DNA from: an uncultured Candidatus Saccharibacteria bacterium
GTDB lineage: Bacteria > Patescibacteriota > Minisyncoccia > Phycocordibacterales > UBA2100
Direction of reading: 5' to 3'
DNA: 64,000 nt
Assembly (NCBI GenBank): GCA_964462785.1
Contig: CAYWZA010000003.1
Span: 1-64,000, forward strand
The position numbers and the translations under genes are program-made. Positions 3,096-43,538 of this stretch are shown in pieces (the stretch's first letter is position 1; each line of letters starts with the position of its first letter). Under the pieces are notes generated by a model, which saw only the letters and a list, made by a program, of their open reading frames with translations, was not told the DNA's origin and searched no databases.

Positions 3096-3731
3096 TTATT
3101 TGACTATTGGCTTCTTAATTACCTCAACTACTTTTCCATTGACTAAAATATTGTCATCTTCGTGAACAAAAATGGGAGAATATTCTTGTGTTGACTCAGA
3201 CATTAGAAGAATTTGTGAGTTCTTGCTGTCCCAAACATATTTTTTTATGTTTGCCATATTATCAATTATAGAAACAATGTAATCGCCGTCACGGGGCACC
3301 ACAGAACCACTGTCAACAATGACAAAATCTCCTTCCTCAATATTTTTTCCATTGATAGAAGCTTTATTCAAAGAATTTCCCTCGGCTCGAAGTGCAAAGA
3401 GATGTTCCTTTTTAGGTAAAAGTTTCTTAGATATCTTTAAGTACCCCTCTATGTTTTCTTCCGCATATATTGTCCGTGGCCCACAATTAGCTGAACCCAT
3501 AATTGGTACAGATATAAACAAATTTGAACTACTTACTTTGCCACTGACCCTACTTATTAAAGCTTTGTTTTTATCGACAACAATAAAACCCTTCCGTTCA
3601 AGTTGAAAAAGATGATGCTTTATTTTTTGGGGGAGCTTCTCGTCAATAAGTGCTCCTATATCCCGTAAGGTCATGCCACCTATATTTTTTGTCTCGATCA
3701 ATCGCAAGAGTTTTTCTTGTATTGGATGCAT
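3096..3731 (-). CDS. lexA: LexA-like repressor (N-terminal wHTH plus S24 peptidase domain)
   Basis: LexA_DNA_bind-like N-terminus (HLFQLERKGFIVV). S24 motifs GNSL (Ser) and ANIKKY (Lys), with the EGDFVIVD block. Confidence 0.7.
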   Translation of the reverse strand: MHPIQEKLLRLIETKNIGGMTLRDIGALIDEKLPQKIKHHLFQLERKGFIVVDKNKALISRVSGKVSSSNLFISVPIMGSANCGPRTIYAEENIEGYLKISKKLLPKKEHLFALRAEGNSLNKASINGKNIEEGDFVIVDSGSVVPRDGDYIVSIIDNMANIKKYVWDSKNSQILLMSESTQEYSPIFVHEDDNILVNGKVVEVIKKPIVK

Positions 3732-4195: not shown

Positions 4196-4402
4196 ATGGC
4201 AAAATATAATCGCAACGCGGGCAAACACTGGACACCACAAGAAGAGCACAAACTTGTCCAAATGGCTCACGGGAATACCCCAACCCGAGTTATCGGACTT
4301 AAACTTGGAAGACCTGCCGGTGGGGTAACTTCAAAGGCTCAAGAATTGAAAGTGAGTCTCAGACCAGTAAATCAGTCGCCCTACAACCGAAGAAAGAAAT
4401 AA
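4196..4402 (+). CDS. Small basic hypothetical protein
   Basis: 68-aa ORF in the low-GC island, followed by an intrinsic terminator. Confidence 0.3.
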   Translation: MAKYNRNAGKHWTPQEEHKLVQMAHGNTPTRVIGLKLGRPAGGVTSKAQELKVSLRPVNQSPYNRRKK

Positions 4403-4523
4403 CTTTCGTGGGTACTTGGAAAAAGCGACCTAGTAGTTAGAGCTTGATCGCCTGAGGTTGTCGGAATTGTCAAAACGGTAAATTGGCTTGGCTGAGATAG
4501 CGATCGAAAGGCGCACCTTCTCG

Positions 4524-4548
4524 AAACACCCCTTGATGGGGTGTTTTT
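4524..4548 (+). terminator. Rho-independent terminator (AAACACCCC-loop-GGGGTGTTT plus T-run)
   Basis: Perfect 9-bp stem followed by TTTTT, at the island boundary. Confidence 0.55.
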
Positions 4549-4745
4549 CGTTCACTAGACACTTTTCAATCCTTTTATAGTGTCTATCGTGTCTATTGAG
4601 ACCGACCCACATGCCTCAAATTCGCAAGTGGAGAAATCCCTCAAAAACCCTTACAATGATTGGTATGTACGGGCACTTAACCCAAATTCACCGCAGATAG
4701 AAACTTCGAGTTCGGACTGGCTGAACATCTTAAGAAAAAATCACT

Positions 4746-5950: not shown

Positions 5951-6250
5951 GTGCATGCAGAGCGCTATACTGAATGCATGATGTATAACAATGATTTCGG
6001 GGGCGGAGCAATGATGGGTCAGGAGGCGTTTAATCTGCCGTTCTTTGATCCGACGTGGTTCATTATTTTCCTGCTCTGGACGCTCGTCTGGAAAGGGCTC
6101 GCGCTCTGGCATGCCGCACAGCGCGAGGATAAGCTCTGGTTCATTGCCCTCCTCGTCATCAATACCGCCGGACTGCTTGAAATTATTTATTTGTTCTTCG
6201 TAGCGAAAAAGAAATTCACCGATTTGTTTCCGGTGGGAGAGATTAAATAG
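5951..6250 (+). CDS. Small two-TM membrane protein (hypothetical)
   Basis: Hydrophobic segments (WFIIFLLWTLVWKGLALW and WFIALLVINTAGLL). The start may be an internal Met. Confidence 0.45.
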   Translation: MHAERYTECMMYNNDFGGGAMMGQEAFNLPFFDPTWFIIFLLWTLVWKGLALWHAAQREDKLWFIALLVINTAGLLEIIYLFFVAKKKFTDLFPVGEIK

Positions 6251-10855: not shown

Positions 10856-10928
10856 CCGCCTGTAGCTCAATGGTTAGAGCACGGAGCTTATACCTCCGGG
10901 GTTCCTGGTTCGAGTCCAGGCAGGCGGA
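10856..10928 (+). tRNA. tRNA-Ile with anticodon UAU (reads AUA)
   Basis: Manual fold: 7-bp acceptor stem CCGCCTG/CAGGCGG, D-arm GCTC/GAGC, anticodon stem CGGAG/CTCCG with loop CTTATAC, T-arm CCTGG-TTCGAGT-CCAGG, discriminator A, no encoded CCA. Confidence 0.75.
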
Positions 10929-10978
10929 CAAATTCGAGCAAAGCGAGAATTTTCCGTCAGGAAAAATACTCGTGACGA

Positions 10979-13666: not shown

Positions 13667-14665
13667 CTATTCAACGATACTGACTAGAGCTTCTTGCATC
13701 AGTTGTTTTGCAAACACATACCCCCGCTCGCCCGCTTCTCGCACCACCTGTCGATTCGTAGAGAGATATGAAATATCTTCGTGCACTTCCGGCGCGATGA
13801 TGCACCAGCGGATTTTTTTGCGCTCGCGCGGTGCCGGTCGTGTGGATTTTTTGAAAAGACCAATGAAAAATTCTTTCCACGTAGTTGCCTTGCGACGCGT
13901 GAGCATCTGCAGCTCGTATGCCATCACACTATCCATAGCAGCGGCACGATCACGCAATGAGCGCGGCATGCCGCGCAGCCACATGTACAGACGTCCAAAC
14001 CAAGGAAACAAGTGTAATTCGATCCACCCCATGTGTTCCGGAAGTGGTCGGTTGAAGATGATGAGTATATCAGTCGGTCGATATTTTTTTGCGATGTGTC
14101 TGATGGGAAGCGGCATACCAAATGCGCCATCACAGACCTGCCTGCCATCAATATGCACCGTGCCGGAGCATAAATCAGGAATCATCATCGACGCTTGTAC
14201 TGCTTCCACTGGATCAGCGGCTTGTTTAACGTCAATAGCCAGATATTTTCCGGTACTGAATTCAGTCGCATACACGATGAAGTCGGAGCGGTTGTTACGG
14301 AGCGCAGTGTCACTGATCGCCCGCAGCACTGTGGTGACCTGATCGATATGCATCTTAATGCCCCAGTTTTTTCTTACGATGAAATTGTTCAGCGTAAGAC
14401 TGGCGAAAATAGATCGCGCGAGTTTCGGTCTGCCGCTCATCACGCCAAACTGAACCGCAGCCCCACCGGAGACCGCCGCGCGCGCATCTGGCGCGTCGGG
14501 GGCATGTTCTGCTATTGCTTCAGCAACACCAGCCCCGTGCACGCACGCCATACCCCCGCCAAGCATGAGCTCCACAATTTTAAATGGCGGTTTCTCACCT
14601 CTATCGAGAGCGCGCTGTTGCAGAATGTAATTGACGAGCACTTGTTTGTTACCGAGCACTTGCAT
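13667..14665 (-). CDS. Patatin-like phospholipase
   Basis: GGGxxG-like LGGGMACVHG, serine-motif region VSGGA, DGA(F) Asp motif. The ORF extends upstream to 14875, but the conserved domain starts near the internal Met. Confidence 0.5.
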   Translation of the reverse strand: MQVLGNKQVLVNYILQQRALDRGEKPPFKIVELMLGGGMACVHGAGVAEAIAEHAPDAPDARAAVSGGAAVQFGVMSGRPKLARSIFASLTLNNFIVRKNWGIKMHIDQVTTVLRAISDTALRNNRSDFIVYATEFSTGKYLAIDVKQAADPVEAVQASMMIPDLCSGTVHIDGRQVCDGAFGMPLPIRHIAKKYRPTDILIIFNRPLPEHMGWIELHLFPWFGRLYMWLRGMPRSLRDRAAAMDSVMAYELQMLTRRKATTWKEFFIGLFKKSTRPAPRERKKIRWCIIAPEVHEDISYLSTNRQVVREAGERGYVFAKQLMQEALVSIVE

Positions 14666-14759
14666 CGCTCCCTCCTTTCTTTTTGGGTATGAGTTTTTCC
14701 TTATACACTCTCTCAACTGTAGGGGGACAAGTGACTTATTGCACGGTATAGTTATCCAC

Positions 14760-15197
14760 ATGGTGTTGATAAGAAATAAAAAGGCACATCTGGAGTATGC
14801 TTTTCTTGAGAAATTCGAGGCGGGTTTGGAATTGCTGGGGCTTGAGGTGAAATCACTGCGTGCCGGCAGGGGCAATTTGGAGGGTGCGCGCGTCGTTGCG
14901 CGCGGCGGCGAAGCGTATTTGGTGGGAGCAACTATTCCCCCATATCAGGCAGGAAATACGCCAAAAGAGTACGATCCTGAGCGCACGCGGCGGCTATTGC
15001 TCTCAAAGCAAGAGATCGCGCAGGTGGCTTCCGCTGAGGGCGCAGAGGGCTTGACAGTAGTGCCTATTGCGGTGTATAATAAAGGGAGGAATTTAAAGCT
15101 TGAAGTCGCCATCGCGCGCGGCAAAAAGAAGTATGATAAAAGGCAGGATTTGAAGAAGCGCGACGAAGAGCGGCGTTTCAAGCGGAAAGAATTTTGA
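14760..15197 (+). CDS. smpB: SsrA-binding protein SmpB
   Basis: SmpB-like sequence (KKAHLEYAFLEKFEAGLELLGLEVKSLRAG...). True start is an internal ATG of the listed ORF. ssrA lies downstream. Confidence 0.85.
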   Translation: MVLIRNKKAHLEYAFLEKFEAGLELLGLEVKSLRAGRGNLEGARVVARGGEAYLVGATIPPYQAGNTPKEYDPERTRRLLLSKQEIAQVASAEGAEGLTVVPIAVYNKGRNLKLEVAIARGKKKYDKRQDLKKRDEERRFKRKEF

Positions 15198-15203
15198 AAA
15201 TTA

Positions 15204-15426
15204 ATTGTGAGTTGTGATGGGTCAACCATGGAGAAGATGGCTGGAGTTCCTGTTTATTCTCGGTGTTTTTGCGCTTGGATTTGGCGCAGGTATGATCCAC
15301 GGATTTAATCGTGGATACGACGAGGGTTTAATTGACGGAAAAGCTTCTATCAAACGAAACCCTACGTAGACCCCAGCACGAGCGCTGCTTAACCGCAACG
15401 CTCGCGCCCCCATCACAACTCACAAT
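15204..15426. repeat. Mini-cassette bounded by perfect 18-bp terminal inverted repeats (ATTGTGAGTTGTGATGGG / CCCATCACAACTCACAAT)
   Basis: Perfect inverted repeats seen directly. The left arm begins 7 nt after the smpB stop. Confidence 0.6.
15217..15369 (+). CDS. 50-aa hydrophobic small ORF inside the IR cassette (MGQPWRRWLEFLFILGVFALGFGAGMIHGF...)
   Basis: Manual translation: one predicted TM helix, start within the left IR. Below the ORF-track size cutoff. Confidence 0.3.
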   Translation: MGQPWRRWLEFLFILGVFALGFGAGMIHGFNRGYDEGLIDGKASIKRNPT

Positions 15427-15437
15427 CACAGTACAAA

Positions 15438-15460
15438 ATATCAAGGTTAAACCTTGATAT
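15438..15460. promoter_or_regulatory. Perfect 11-bp-arm palindrome ATATCAAGGTT-A-AACCTTGATAT
   Basis: Seen directly; between the IR cassette and ssrA. Could be an operator or a hairpin. Confidence 0.4.
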
Positions 15461-15915
15461 TAACGAGTGCTTGAGTGTGGCACTGAACTTTTATCACAAG
15501 GATGCCCACGCATGGGCAAAAAAACAGACTCACTAAAACAGTATCGGGAGTACCTTAACTCCCACAACGATCAGCTCGAGAGTTTCGAGCAATTGCATAT
15601 CGAGGCACGCGCAACCGCGCATTGCCGAGGGTCGCCTGAGCCAGAGATCGGTAGGGATGAGCTCTACTACCAAGGAGAGCTCGAATTCACCGATGGTCCC
15701 AGTGGTCCACTCACGCGGGCTTTTCGTTGACACTTCGGTGGGGAGAGCCACAACTCCCCGCCACACTTAAGCACTCGTTATGATGACGAAGGTCCGACCT
15801 TCGTCAGAAAAGCACAGCCAGTCCCCGTGAGATATTAAACATTCAGCAGAGTACACAATTCAGTAATTCAGTTACGAAAGCGACTCGGTAGCAGAAACGA
15901 TTTTGGTATCTCACG

Positions 15916-16302
15916 GGGGGTGACTTGGCTTCGACATTGAGTTACGTGTTTTGAAGTGCATGACAGAAGTGAGCGTCTTCTTAAAAAAGCTCAAAACCTA
16001 AGTGCAAATAAAACAGCACGGGGGATTCTTTCACCTATTCAGATGAAAGATCTCGGCTTCGTTTACGCTACGGCCTAAGCGACCGTGTGCCTGTCTGACA
16101 TCCGATGAGATAGAGCGCACGTCATACACTTCGGATCCGACTTTCTTGCGCACCAAAGAAAGTTTAAAGAAAGAGTGCTCGGCATTGTAGGATCTTGTGT
16201 GTTCCCTACCTACAGCGCTTAAACAAAACATGAACGCACTACGTCATGTAGACAGTTCCTAACATTCCTCTTTGGACTCGGGTTCAATTCCCGACACTTC
16301 CA
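15916..16302 (+). ncRNA. ssrA: tmRNA (ssrA)
   Basis: 5' end GGGGGUGACUUGGCUUCGAC parallels E. coli GGGGCUGAUUCUGGAUUCGAC. 3' tRNA-like end GGACUCGGGUUCAAUUCCCGACACUUCCAC-A with a G3-U70 pair. Candidate resume codon GCA at nt 89 (16004) in the context UAAAAAAGCUCAAAACCUAAGU-GCA. Adjacent smpB. Confidence 0.8.
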
Positions 16303-16304
16303 CA

Positions 16305-16352
16305 GGTAAAACAAAAACGCTGCACTCATTAGTGCAGCGTTTTTGTTTTACC
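16305..16352. terminator. 22-bp perfect palindrome (GGTAAAACAAAAACGCTGCACT-catt-AGTGCAGCGTTTTTGTTTTACC) directly 3' of ssrA
   Basis: Seen directly. Likely a bidirectional terminator. The stop codon of the LAGLIDADG gene lies in the loop. Confidence 0.6.
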
Positions 16353-16781
16353 TGGCTTGATTTGAAGAAACCTTTCTGCAAATTTCAAACGTTGCTTGAG
16401 TAAAGTTGGCGAATATTTGCCATTGCGGGGTGTTAGCGCAACATAACGATTGAGCGCGAACGTAGCCCTTCCCTTTTTATATCCGCGCAAGAAAGGTGTG
16501 ATTTGTCGAAGTACATCCAGGGCTTGTCTGCTGTAAATTTGATATGCAAAGGAAGGTGAGTGCTTATCTTTTGATCTGGTCTTTCTGGTGATTTTTCCCA
16601 CTCCAATGACACGACGTGCGTGTTCCAATAAACCATATTCAGTACTACTGATCGTTACAGCGAGATGCCGTTGGGCATTCTTCTGTTTATAAGTAAGAGT
16701 GATTGTGCCCTCACCATCAACCAACCCCGCCAGATATGCGGCGTCTGTTGTGCTCATATTTTTTGCGATTTTCTTACTCAT
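16329..16781 (-). CDS. LAGLIDADG homing endonuclease (single-motif, free-standing)
   Basis: LAGLVDGEG motif near the N-terminus; 150 aa is typical of homodimeric LAGLIDADG enzymes. Confidence 0.85.
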   Translation of the reverse strand: MSKKIAKNMSTTDAAYLAGLVDGEGTITLTYKQKNAQRHLAVTISSTEYGLLEHARRVIGVGKITRKTRSKDKHSPSFAYQIYSRQALDVLRQITPFLRGYKKGRATFALNRYVALTPRNGKYSPTLLKQRLKFAERFLQIKPGKTKTLH

Positions 16782-16800
16782 GACTACTATTATATAGGAG

Positions 16801-17481
16801 ATGGGGCTATCAGCAACCAGTCCACATCCAGAAAGAAAGGCAACTTCGATGCGCGCAAGCGTTTTTTGTTTGCTGAATTCCGTATTTCAGACTGTTTGTT
16901 TGTTGACACGCGCCTCTTTTTCACCGATGGTGAACGTAGAATATTGGAGAGACCCCATGCACCACGAGACTGATGCTGAGTGGCACCGGCTGGAGTGCCT
17001 GTGTGCAGACTCTTTCGCCGAGTTGGTGGCAATCGCGATTAATGAACTGCATAAATTTCCTACTGGGTGCGAGCTGGTATGCGGTCCCATCACGACCGGC
17101 GGGCGCGGTAGCGTCGCTGAAAATATCGCAGTCTTTAACGCGACCATCCAAGCTCTACAAGCGCAAGGCAGACCTATCTTCAGCCAGCTGCCGTACGAAG
17201 AGCGTATATTCTTCTTTCGAAAGCGCTGGCTCGATGCTGATCCTTTACGCAAGGGGCAATATTACATGCCCATCCTTGAAGATTTTTATCATCCGCTTAT
17301 TAAAACGGGTCATATAAAAAAGGGGTGGTTCATCCCTGGGTGGGAATCGTCGCTTGGCGCCACATGGGAGCGCCAACATCTGACAGAAACTGCTGTAGAA
17401 GTCTGCGATCTCTCCAGCGATTGGGTTGACGAGGTCTTGCGTTCTGCGCAGAGCGACGGCACTGGATACACCCCGCAATAA
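16801..17481 (+). CDS. DUF4406 / nucleoside 2-deoxyribosyltransferase-like domain protein (often phage-associated)
   Basis: LVCGPITTGGRGSVAENIAVFNATIQALQAQG resembles the DUF4406 core. The true start is probably an internal Met. Confidence 0.4.
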   Translation: MGLSATSPHPERKATSMRASVFCLLNSVFQTVCLLTRASFSPMVNVEYWRDPMHHETDAEWHRLECLCADSFAELVAIAINELHKFPTGCELVCGPITTGGRGSVAENIAVFNATIQALQAQGRPIFSQLPYEERIFFFRKRWLDADPLRKGQYYMPILEDFYHPLIKTGHIKKGWFIPGWESSLGATWERQHLTETAVEVCDLSSDWVDEVLRSAQSDGTGYTPQ

Positions 17482-17570
17482 CATGCGGGGTCTTTTTTAC
17501 ACCATTGTTACGCCTTGCACCACCATCGCACCGCTGTACAGTAGAAACAGAACAATCATAGGAGCATAGT

Positions 17571-42050: not shown

Positions 42051-43538
42051 CTATCTCCGCTTGAGGTTAATTACATGACTGTCAGTGTGCTCGGGGTTGG
42101 CGCGCTGCTGGTGCAGTTTCTTGAGATCAATCGTGCCGCGACGATCGACAATGGGAGACTCCGTGTTGCGCGGAGTATTAACCCGTGGAGCGGCATCGCT
42201 TTCAAACGCATCGCGCAGGCTGCGTGTAGCCGGCTTTGGTGCGGTGGCGGGCGGTGGCACAGGGGCAGCGACACTCTGCACTGCCGGTGGCGCCGCCCGC
42301 CGCGAAAATGAGACGCGCGGTATCATATCGCCGATGAATGTGAACGGGGTTGCAGCAAGCGACGCAAATGCCGCCAATCGTGAAGTGATGCCCGGCGTAT
42401 GCGCATCCACAATCGCGCTGATCTCATGCGGTTGGTGTTTCAGAAACCCTGCGAGTGCAAGCTTGCCCAAATGCCGATCCTCAAACCACTTGTGGAAGTA
42501 GAGCGCGAAGAAAATAATCGCGATCATGCTCACAATAAACAGCGTCAAGAGCTGCTTCCACGGCACTATCCAAAAATAAATCGTGTCTTGCACCGACGCA
42601 CCTTGCCCACGCCCGTAATCGACAGTCAGAAATGCTTTGTACCTGCCAAATCCATCAACCGCGCTCCACACGGAAGCAAGCTGTGCCACTTGATCCGGCG
42701 CATAGGATTTGCCCTCGCCGTTGATGCCCACCGCCGCGACCTCCTCCCCCTTTCTATTATAGATACGGATCTCGCCGCGCGGCGAAAGCTCTTGATTCCC
42801 GATATTTTCAAGCTGGTAATTAAAGAGCACATCGTCGCCCGAAAAATAAAAACTGTCAGTAAAGAATTTGTTGAGCTGCATTACCTCTTTCACATTCGCT
42901 TTAACCTCCACATTCACCATCAGGAATGCGAGCGGCGGACCTGACTCAGCTGCCGAGCGCGAGCTGCCATCCCCAAAGCTGATGCGCGCATGATATGAGC
43001 CGGCAATCGCATTCATATTGACGCGAATGACAAACGGAATAACCTTCTCCTCTCCAGGACCAAGCTCGACAACACCGCGCGATAGCTCGATCCAATTGGC
43101 GAGCGACGCCGCGCGATCACTGGAATCTGTTGCATTCACAAACTCCTGCTTGCCATCTTCGGCGCTCACATTATTGACCGATGGATAGAGCGTCAGTTTG
43201 CGATTACTGGTATTGACCAGCGTGATTGATTCTTTAAGAATGTCGCGCGCCTGTGCCGTTTCATCGATCACGACTGGCTCGATCGAGAGTTCGGCAGATT
43301 GCTGCTCAGCGGCATGCAGGGCAAGCGGTATGCAAAAAATTACAATGAGGTACAGAAGCGCAAATGCAGGTGCGCGCGAGCCTAATGACTTTTGGTCACT
43401 TCGGACTGTATCACCACTGCGCTGGAAAAACACGTGTGCATGCGCGCTGCGCGATGCTCGCTTACACCTCATTTGCGCTTCTGTGTACGCAGCTCGAATG
43501 CTCAGAGTCGAAAATTTTTCGTTCAGCCAATGTCGCAT
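42051..43538 (-). CDS. DUF916/DUF3324-like cell-surface protein, paralog C
   Basis: Start probably at an internal Met near 43472. VIPFVIRVNMNAIAGSYHARISFGDG block and C-terminal TM. Confidence 0.5.
   Translation of the reverse strand: MRHWLNEKFSTLSIRAAYTEAQMRCKRASRSAHAHVFFQRSGDTVRSDQKSLGSRAPAFALLYLIVIFCIPLALHAAEQQSAELSIEPVVIDETAQARDILKESITLVNTSNRKLTLYPSVNNVSAEDGKQEFVNATDSSDRAASLANWIELSRGVVELGPGEEKVIPFVIRVNMNAIAGSYHARISFGDGSSRSAAESGPPLAFLMVNVEVKANVKEVMQLNKFFTDSFYFSGDDVLFNYQLENIGNQELSPRGEIRIYNRKGEEVAAVGINGEGKSYAPDQVAQLASVWSAVDGFGRYKAFLTVDYGRGQGASVQDTIYFWIVPWKQLLTLFIVSMIAIIFFALYFHKWFEDRHLGKLALAGFLKHQPHEISAIVDAHTPGITSRLAAFASLAATPFTFIGDMIPRVSFSRRAAPPAVQSVAAPVPPPATAPKPATRSLRDAFESDAAPRVNTPRNTESPIVDRRGTIDLKKLHQQRANPEHTDSHVINLKRR

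Follow-up and report, generated by a model that had tools for sequence, protein, structure and literature searches.

The window analysed here is the whole 64-kb stretch of contig CAYWZA010000003.1 (positions 1 to 64,000, forward strand), and the feature under study is cassette 1, a unit of 223 bp bounded by inverted arms, which lies in the 718-nt spacer between smpB and the transfer-messenger RNA (tmRNA) gene ssrA. The cassette encloses a putative open reading frame (ORF), termed ORF1. The features that define it are as follows.

14760..15197, + strand: smpB, 145 aa, taken from the ORF list; Pfam SmpB match, E 2.4e-45; stop codon TGA at 15195-15197.
15204..15221, + strand: left arm of cassette 1, ATTGTGAGTTGTGATGGG, paired with the right arm in the minimum free energy (MFE) and centroid folds.
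15217..15369, + strand: ORF1, putatively coding, 50 codons with an ATG start, one transmembrane (TM) helix and a GYDEGLIDG motif.
15376..15407, + strand: GC-rich inner hairpin of cassette 1, from the predicted fold; it abuts the right arm.
15409..15426, + strand: right arm of cassette 1, CCCATCACAACTCACAAT, the exact reverse complement of ATTGTGAGTTGTGATGGG.
15916..16303, + strand: tmRNA gene (ssrA), identified by ARAGORN and by Rfam (RF00023, 112 bits).

A first-pass annotation, made from the sequence alone, had described a mini-cassette with perfect 18-bp inverted arms bounding 223 bp between smpB and ssrA, and this description holds: the arms are at 15204-15221 and 15409-15426, the left arm follows the smpB stop codon after a gap of 6 nt, and the identity of both flanking genes is borne out by Pfam, ARAGORN and Rfam. 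The ATG-initiated 50-codon ORF reported within the unit (15217-15369, MGQPWRRWLEFLFILGVFALGFGAGMIHGFNRGYDEGLIDGKASIKRNPT) is present, as is the 64-codon ORF on the opposite strand (15222-15416, GTG start). The start codon of ORF1 falls inside the left arm. Only two copies of the ATTGTGAGTTGTGATGGG arm occur in the window with up to three mismatches allowed, and none of 100 shuffled sequences contained two matches, which rules out a chance inverted repeat as the origin of the arms. Near-matches at 42467 and 44187 were rejected as partnerless, the latter lying inside a 439-aa ORF. When 15185-15470 is folded as RNA, the arms pair as a closing helix of 18 bp in both the MFE and the centroid structure, with an MFE of -111.8 kcal/mol (z = -8.4 against shuffles). 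The flanking sequence reads AAAATTA on the left and CACAGT on the right, and there is no target-site duplication, either at these flanks or by comparison with the empty site in a related locus, L132. The search for further copies of the 18-bp repeat that the first-pass annotation had proposed gave none in the window, and paired cassette 1 arms had no match in the metagenome collection.

SmpB (79-87% identity) and a homologue of ORF2, the ORF of a second cassette in the same spacer, led to a set of closer relatives. Cassette 1 is absent from the seven with a readable spacer (L082, L122, L123, L124, L125, L130 and L132; 79-86% SmpB identity); L126 and L128 have the same SmpB and gene layout as L125. 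A cassette of another arm class, type B, is present without cassette 1 in L082, L122, L124, L125, L130 and L132, while in L123 the type B frame is empty, consisting of 58 nt that comprise the arms and inner hairpin alone. L132 shares the end of smpB with the window (GAATTTTGAAAATTA) and then continues with a linker, a palindrome and the type B arm. By manual reading, 15204-15426 is an indel relative to L132, its ends falling within a few nucleotides of the arms. Cassette 1 is a discrete insertion with boundaries matching its arms, and the proposed comparison of spacers across related genomes, which reveals presence and absence of the segment, supports the earlier notion of an inserted cassette. 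The closest relative, L121 (87% SmpB identity), carries a cassette at the same position, with the arm ATTGTAAGTTTCGGTGGGG, a strong Shine-Dalgarno (SD) sequence and a hydrophobic ORF. Its arm matches that of cassette 1 at approximately 14 of 18 positions by manual alignment and resembles the arm of type A, the other main class. Because the L121 arm is intermediate between the window arm and type A, cassette 1 is treated here as a divergent type A member, which we infer it to be.

SmpB places the window in the Parcubacteria, part of the candidate phyla radiation (CPR), with the labels Kaiserbacteria and Paceibacterota; at species level, the best relative shows 72% identity. The spacers of 40 related loci in which tmRNA follows smpB measure between 4 and 1411 nt, and 16 of them are longer than 200 nt. 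Most of the long spacers contain an ORF enclosed by an inverted repeat, the arms of which sort into sequence families: the type A arm is ATTGAGTATCGGAATGTGG, and the type B arm, to which the second cassette of the window belongs, is AACGAGTGCTTGAGTGTGG. In 57 core-group loci, read with flanks of up to 3 kb on each side, inverted pairs of type A or B arms are found in the spacer only. One type A arm, used alone to scan metagenomes, matched at 33 loci. An inverted partner is present at 17 of these, every one of which has smpB and/or tmRNA alongside, and two more end at a contig edge beside smpB; the remaining 14 are partnerless singles without smpB, close to the number expected by chance on our own estimate. 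Four single matches to the type A arm in viral contigs had no partner and were taken as chance.

The 23 distinct type A cassettes have a common order: left arm, 6-10 nt, AAAGGAGG, start codon (often within CCACATG), an ORF of 33-220 aa, a hairpin and the right arm. The SD sequence and start codon are on the smpB strand in 22 of the 23, the exception being an empty cassette of 67 nt, and AAGGAGG is found 5-10 nt before the start in 22 of 23 and also in L121. The hairpin abuts the right arm in every case, with predicted energies of -6 to -26 kcal/mol (-12 or lower in the 22 loaded cassettes). Type B cassettes likewise all share the same polarity, and no consistent target duplication is seen across the 23 type A cassettes. 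The type A arms covary, with 96.6% of cells paired and double changes in four of 19 pairs; their covariation score is reached by none of 500 shuffles. Arm mismatches in types A and B, counted by hand, comprise approximately 13 G-U and approximately 10 A-C, with no clear G-U bias. By inspection, the type A cargo falls into at least ten unrelated groups, among them acidic proteins and small peptides that contain a hydrophobic segment. Most sister cassettes encode acidic soluble proteins of up to ~220 aa behind strong, exposed SD sequences, and translations reveal small peptides with a hydrophobic segment in L011, L016, L017, L088, L096, L100, L116 and L121. Comparison of the cargo proteins with Pfam, PHROGs and PADLOC gave no matches other than weak PHROG ones for ORF1. 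The cassettes thus constitute a family with fixed anatomy and polarity, confined to the smpB-tmRNA site, with gain and loss bounded by the arms, diverse cargo and covarying arms. That cassette 1 is a stem-closed mini-gene cassette within a transcribed spacer, and a divergent member of this lineage-wide, locus-specific family, is the interpretation favoured here, with the balance of probability modestly on its side.

In type A cassettes (L003-L118), the pre-start CCACATG can pair with ATGTGG at the 3' end of the left arm, leaving the SD sequence in the loop. This alternative CCACAT/ATGTGG fold covaries in L005 (GGTGG/CCACC; 3444-3490) and L088 (GTGA/TCAC; 6153-6190), and does not in L097. An alternative fold of this kind may control translation.

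L082 and L124 share arms, the 5' untranslated region through ATGGCCAA and the inner hairpin, although the 72-aa proteins that they encode are unrelated; therefore, cargo turns over inside a fixed frame. The type B frame of L122, L124, L125, L130 and L132 also holds cargo unrelated to ORF2. Empty cassettes are found in L123 (58 nt), L113 (67 nt) and L001.

The spacer of the window as a whole consists of five modules: cassette 1, a palindrome (P1), cassette 2, a second palindrome (P2) and a leader hairpin. The features downstream of cassette 1 are listed below.

15437..15461, + strand: palindrome P1, perfect and AT-rich, with 12-bp arms and a 1-nt loop, just 5' of cassette 2.
15461..15481, + strand: left arm of cassette 2 (type B), TAACGAGTGCTTGAGTGTGGC, 21 nt, 95% complementary to its partner, the sole mismatch being a G-U on the + strand.
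15512..15730, + strand: ORF2, 72 aa, with the SD sequence AAGGA upstream.
15740..15759, + strand: inner hairpin of cassette 2, GGGGAG-AGCCACAA-CTCCCC, from the predicted fold.
15760..15780, + strand: right arm of cassette 2, GCCACACTTAAGCACTCGTTA, from the inverted repeat, the fold and the relatives.
15784..15806, + strand: palindrome P2, perfect, with 11-bp arms and a 1-nt loop.
15810..15931, + strand: putative pre-tmRNA leader hairpin, from the inverted repeat and the fold, pairing 15810-15839 with 15902-15931 (core 15823-15834 with 15907-15918).

Each module is predicted to fold on itself as RNA, with z = -8.4 for cassette 1, -9.0 for cassette 2 and -14.0 for the whole spacer. Cassette 2 (15461-15780) begins 35 nt downstream of cassette 1 and has the same architecture, including a GC-rich hairpin directly inside the right arm (15740-15759, compared with 15376-15407 in cassette 1). 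Its left arm is conserved in L082, L122-L125, L130, L132 and L023, and a homologous inner hairpin, GGAGGAGCCGCCACARCTCCTCC, is retained throughout type B, even in the empty cassette of L123. A homologue of ORF2 (P0002), 67% identical, is encoded in L082/L083. Between the window and L082, the non-synonymous divergence (pN) of ORF2 is 0.20 and the synonymous divergence (pS) 0.76, values that point to a genuine gene under purifying selection; for this reason cassette cargo is counted as real coding sequence where it is testable. No match to ORF2 was found in viral contigs.

The trailing palindrome reported in the first-pass annotation is present and perfect, as described, but extends slightly further, having 12-bp arms and a 1-nt loop at 15437-15461 rather than 11-bp arms at 15438-15460. 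AT-rich perfect palindromes with arms of 10-12 bp and loops of 1-5 nt separate modules in the window, L082, L124, L130, L132, L013 and L027; their sequence varies from genome to genome while perfect symmetry is kept. Those beside the type B cassettes of L130, L132, L082 and L124 are analogous to P1 with other sequences.

The acceptor-stem strand of tmRNA, its first 16 nt, forms part of the 3' arm of the leader hairpin. Among 17 related loci whose spacer measures 43-155 nt, a counterpart with another sequence is predicted in 16, and several longer spacers show one too. Such a hairpin must act in RNA. In the clade of the window, its loop is enlarged to 62-78 conserved nt. No complementarity between the cassette arms and tmRNA exceeds 7 nt. 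Rfam searches of 14000-17500 (E <= 1) and of eight related loci (E <= 0.1) returned tmRNA and sub-threshold matches at chance level only.

A candidate promoter for the spacer is located within smpB.

15051..15080, + strand: sigma-70 consensus promoter TTGACA-18-TATAAT, a 12/12 match of putative function.

Of 57 Parcubacteria loci, 52 have the full 12/12 at this site and none scores below 11/12, compared with an average of 8.5/12 for 23 loci from outside the core group. The hexamers are identical at synonymous positions despite a spacer GC content that varies from 31 to 59% across related genomes, which argues for a functional promoter, and the site probably drives ssrA. If so, the cassettes would lie in the 5' leader of pre-tmRNA. 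No U-tract terminator follows any arm or palindrome. The one terminator-like match on the + strand (15466-15484) is a local hairpin inside the left arm of cassette 2. A consensus scan of 14500-16500 found no sigma-70-like promoter on the minus strand, although such a scan cannot exclude one. The smpB gene itself appears leaderless: it has no SD sequence, and a -10-like TATAGT (14747-14752) precedes its ATG (14760) by 7 nt.

The putative product of ORF1 is a peptide of 50 aa with a hydrophobic stretch, WLEFLFILGVFALGFGAGMIHGF, in which a single TM helix was called by inspection. A Logan assembly of this organism likewise has ORF1 called as a gene, and exact-protein look-ups returned that organism only (L081, 100% identical). 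A HMMER search of 1.84 billion representatives recovered the peptide itself and repeat proteins that share only the GYxxGxxDG (Yae1_N) motif; tblastn against phages gave no match, and the one IMG/VR match was confined to the motif, in a repeat protein of 196 aa. Pfam at E <= 1 yielded weak matches to DUF4516 and Yae1_N (the latter at E 0.05) and no toxin family, and PADLOC had no match. There is a weak match to phrog_33993, a group of small phage proteins (E 5e-4). The C-terminal motif GFNRGYDEGLIDG (15292-15345) corresponds to one unit of a GX3-type repeat (Pfam Yae1_N), which occurs in tandem in large surface-type proteins (L133 2620-3210) and in a phage protein of 196 aa. No SD sequence precedes ORF1, since only TCAACC separates the left arm from the next ATG. 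The absence of an SD sequence, the burial of the ATG in the arm and the absence of homologues count against translation. In its favour are the intact frame, the clean TM segment, the recurrence of GYDEGLIDG in real proteins, the weak phrog_33993 match and the repeated appearance of small hydrophobic peptides as cassette cargo. On these grounds translation of ORF1 is given nearly an even chance, with the weight slightly on the negative side.

These data are consistent with a model in which each cassette is a stem-insulated mini-mRNA module, carried by tmRNA transcription and probably excised by RNase III. The consensus promoter inside smpB would generate a pre-tmRNA with a long leader, on which the cassettes would travel as promoterless passengers of a heavily transcribed RNA. 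The arms would pair as a helix of 18-21 bp, closing the insert into a domain of its own and leaving the leader hairpin and tmRNA free to fold and mature. Such a helix is a duplex of RNase III length, and its cleavage would free a small mRNA with paired ends, much as 16S and 23S rRNA are released from their precursor. For cassette 1, the product would be a single-pass membrane peptide of 50 aa. Because ORF1 lacks an SD sequence and has its ATG inside the arm, its translation would require the helix to be opened, most simply by ribosomes that finish smpB at its stop codon, 19 nt upstream of the ORF1 start. Homologous recombination through the very conserved flanks would be the simplest route of spread between strains, possibly helped by homing-endonuclease genes at the locus. 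A further suggestion is that the hairpin frame serves as both an RNA-processing and an exchange signal, so that the pre-tmRNA leader would be a platform for swappable mini-genes and the locus an integron-like hotspot without an integrase; this is advanced tentatively, the chances being somewhat against it.

Several points weigh against the model. The transcription start, co-transcription and any cleavage are all putative. The type A membership of cassette 1 depends on architecture, position and the chain of arm similarity through L121, and the cassette has neither an SD sequence nor a homologue. The arm mismatches, with approximately 13 G-U against approximately 10 A-C, show no clear bias towards G-U on the + strand and do not tell a function in RNA from one in DNA, so that the arms may act in DNA, as a recombination site, hairpin or cruciform. 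Moreover, arm sequence is conserved, beyond the needs of pairing, between species whose SmpB proteins are 60-70% identical, and a plain RNase III stem is therefore insufficient as an explanation. Among ten further ORFs of the window that were scanned there is no recombinase or RNase III, although no search was aimed at rnc.

The last points bear on an explanation in which the arms and inner hairpin are recombination signals for a site-specific enzyme or a hairpin-targeting mechanism that would put cargo in and exchange it at one locus, as in an integron lacking an adjacent integrase, and RNA pairing is a by-product. Besides the conserved arm sequence and the lack of a clear G-U bias, it would account for cargo that always lies between left arm and inner hairpin, for empty frames, for identical frames holding unrelated ORFs and for indel boundaries that coincide with the arms, and homing-endonuclease genes are found at the locus (GIY-YIG-like by eye in L021, L029 and L040, and LAGLIDADG in the window). 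However, no recombinase, integrase or transposase is present among the neighbouring ORFs scanned, integron R''/R' core sites and target duplications are lacking, co-orientation with transcription and a strong SD sequence in 22 of 23 cassettes fit an expression module, and the conserved flanks permit ordinary homologous exchange without a dedicated enzyme; the explanation is accordingly judged improbable, though it has to be taken seriously. Somewhat less unlikely is that cassette 1 is a decaying relic, its frame persisting while the SD sequence has been lost and the 50-codon ORF is not expressed. ORF1 is an orphan preceded by TCAACC, where 22 of 23 type A cassettes and L121 have AAGGAGG 5-10 nt before the start, and the empty frames demonstrate that cargo can decay while arms persist. 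Yet the arms still match each other at 18 of 18 positions and the ORF is intact, with a clean TM helix, a motif that recurs in real proteins and the weak phrog_33993 match, and reinitiation after the smpB stop codon 19 nt upstream would need no SD sequence. The first-pass annotation had also raised a type I toxin-like membrane peptide, which in such a scheme would damage membranes and be silenced by a 5'-3' fold-back helix burying the start codon, as in hok mRNA. The single-TM ORF of 50 aa with its ATG inside an 18-bp arm and no SD sequence suits this proposal, as does the recurrence of small hydrophobic peptides in eight other loci. It is nevertheless given a low probability, since Pfam at E <= 1 offers no toxin family and PADLOC no match, the minus strand has no promoter-like site in the consensus scan, and the cargo of most sister cassettes is acidic and soluble, reaching ~220 aa, behind SD sequences that are strong and exposed; ORF1 has no homologues by which its conservation could be judged. 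Both the relic and the toxin proposals are compatible with the stem-insulated module.

The two remaining explanations fare much worse. A miniature inverted-repeat transposable element (MITE) or fold-back transposon that landed by chance between smpB and ssrA, also suggested earlier, would have perfect terminal inverted repeats, a small size and no transposase, and would be polymorphic among relatives, all of which is seen here. This proposal is largely refuted, and very improbable, given the lack of a target-site duplication, of any second copy in 64 kb and of any paired-arm metagenome match, and given that the related arm family is strictly locus-specific with a fixed polarity. An invertible phase-variable segment, or the terminator or attenuator hairpin coupling smpB and ssrA that was the third earlier suggestion, could be imagined from inverted repeats that flank a 187-bp segment between functionally linked genes and from the very stable predicted structure. 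It scarcely merits consideration, because the interior has the same polarity in 22 of 23 cassettes with the inner hairpin on the right in 23 of 23, the arms are not followed by a U-tract, the element is missing from close relatives in which smpB and ssrA are retained, and a conserved internal promoter is available for ssrA.

Other features of the locus concern its surroundings. A LAGLIDADG homing-endonuclease ORF of 150 aa (16329-16781, minus strand) converges on the 3' end of tmRNA, and a perfect 24-bp inverted repeat with a 4-nt loop (16303-16354) covers both that end and the final 26 nt of the ORF; it looks like a terminator shared by the two. In relatives, GIY-YIG-like small ORFs, recognized by eye (...YILYS...LYVGCT...), lie in the smpB-ssrA spacer of L021 (952-1230), L029 (~4400-4652) and L040 (3457-3717). 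This suggests that free-standing homing endonucleases target the smpB-ssrA locus. In L083, a hairpin-rich insertion of 81 nt (811-891), including a perfect palindrome with 13-bp arms, interrupts the tmRNA gene in comparison with L082, which is 97% identical. A tRNA-Ile with anticodon UAU is encoded at 10856-10929 in the window and lies within ~3 kb of smpB in many relatives (L024, L026, L037, L039, L040 and others).

In the tiny, streamlined genomes of the CPR, one would not expect a hypervariable site for accessory genes to separate two core genes of translation rescue. If the model is correct, the locus would offer promoterless genes a new route to acquisition and expression, riding a strongly transcribed RNA yet structurally insulated from it, and tmRNA would have an unrecognized mode of expression in this lineage, with an smpB-internal promoter, a long leader that is processed and a hairpin that pairs the tmRNA 5' end. 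It would also reveal a pool of at least ten unrelated, uncharacterized small-protein families that turn over between close relatives. On the more tentative reading of the leader as a platform, bacteria with minimal genomes would draw small membrane proteins and acidic proteins from it. Turnover between close relatives is typical of conflict or host-interaction genes. The cassettes would also represent a natural design for self-contained expression modules. For annotation, they account for the range of 4-1411 nt in the smpB-ssrA spacers of the group.

Literature searches and the 2025 tmRNA database paper (PMC11915505) yielded no account of such cassettes or of an smpB-internal promoter. Among known systems, the RNase III stalks of rRNA operons and the intervening sequences (IVSs) of 23S rRNA are similar in having long-range flanking helices within a longer, strongly transcribed precursor, in which a helix of RNase III length insulates the enclosed domain and inserts are tolerated as looped-out sequence. 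The predicted closing helix, approximately two turns long and with compensatory change in type A, fits the RNase III type, and the smpB-internal promoter would supply the longer transcript. The cassettes differ in enclosing a small protein-coding message with its own SD sequence, in having pre-tmRNA as the putative precursor and in arm sequences that are conserved across species; cleavage is postulated for them. The hok/sok system also has a small hydrophobic ORF, mRNA ends paired over a long distance and a buried start codon, a likeness that holds for cassette 1 only. Cassette 1, however, has no sequence homology to it, no mok-like leader ORF and no sign of an antisense RNA, and most sister cassettes encode non-hydrophobic proteins with accessible SD sequences.

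Integron arrays line up small, promoterless ORFs of one orientation, highly diverse and for the most part orphans, behind a strong promoter at a single chromosomal site, with an imperfect-palindrome element in each unit and some 'empty' units, all of which recalls the loci described here. In the cassettes, by contrast, the repeats flank the ORF rather than form a 3' attC, and the arrays are short (one to three units). The outer ends ATTGTGA/TCACAAT (ATTGAGT/ACTCAAT in type A) do not fit the integron cores RYYYAAC/GTTRRRY in sequence or order, and no integrase or attI is adjacent, the neighbours among the part of the window ORFs scanned being a patatin, SmpB, the LAGLIDADG protein and unannotated ORFs. 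The Correia elements of Neisseria and ERIC elements are transcribed MITEs, likewise small and with inverted repeats; they lie in intergenic regions, and nucleases act on their RNA hairpins, but they are dispersed in tens to hundreds of copies with target duplications and no SD-ORF cargo, whereas the cassette family is restricted to a single locus. Free-standing homing endonucleases of the T4 seg/mob type also produce variable insertions between two very conserved sequences, and GIY-YIG-like or LAGLIDADG ORFs are found at or beside smpB-ssrA in some genomes. Cassette 1 and most other cassettes nevertheless encode no nuclease, and homing-endonuclease genes do not have conserved closing arms. The combination of features and the locus match none of these systems, while the parts resemble rRNA processing stalks, the hok fold-back and integron arrays; the hairpin-closed mini-gene cassettes at smpB-ssrA, present in dozens of related genomes, apparently constitute an undescribed family.

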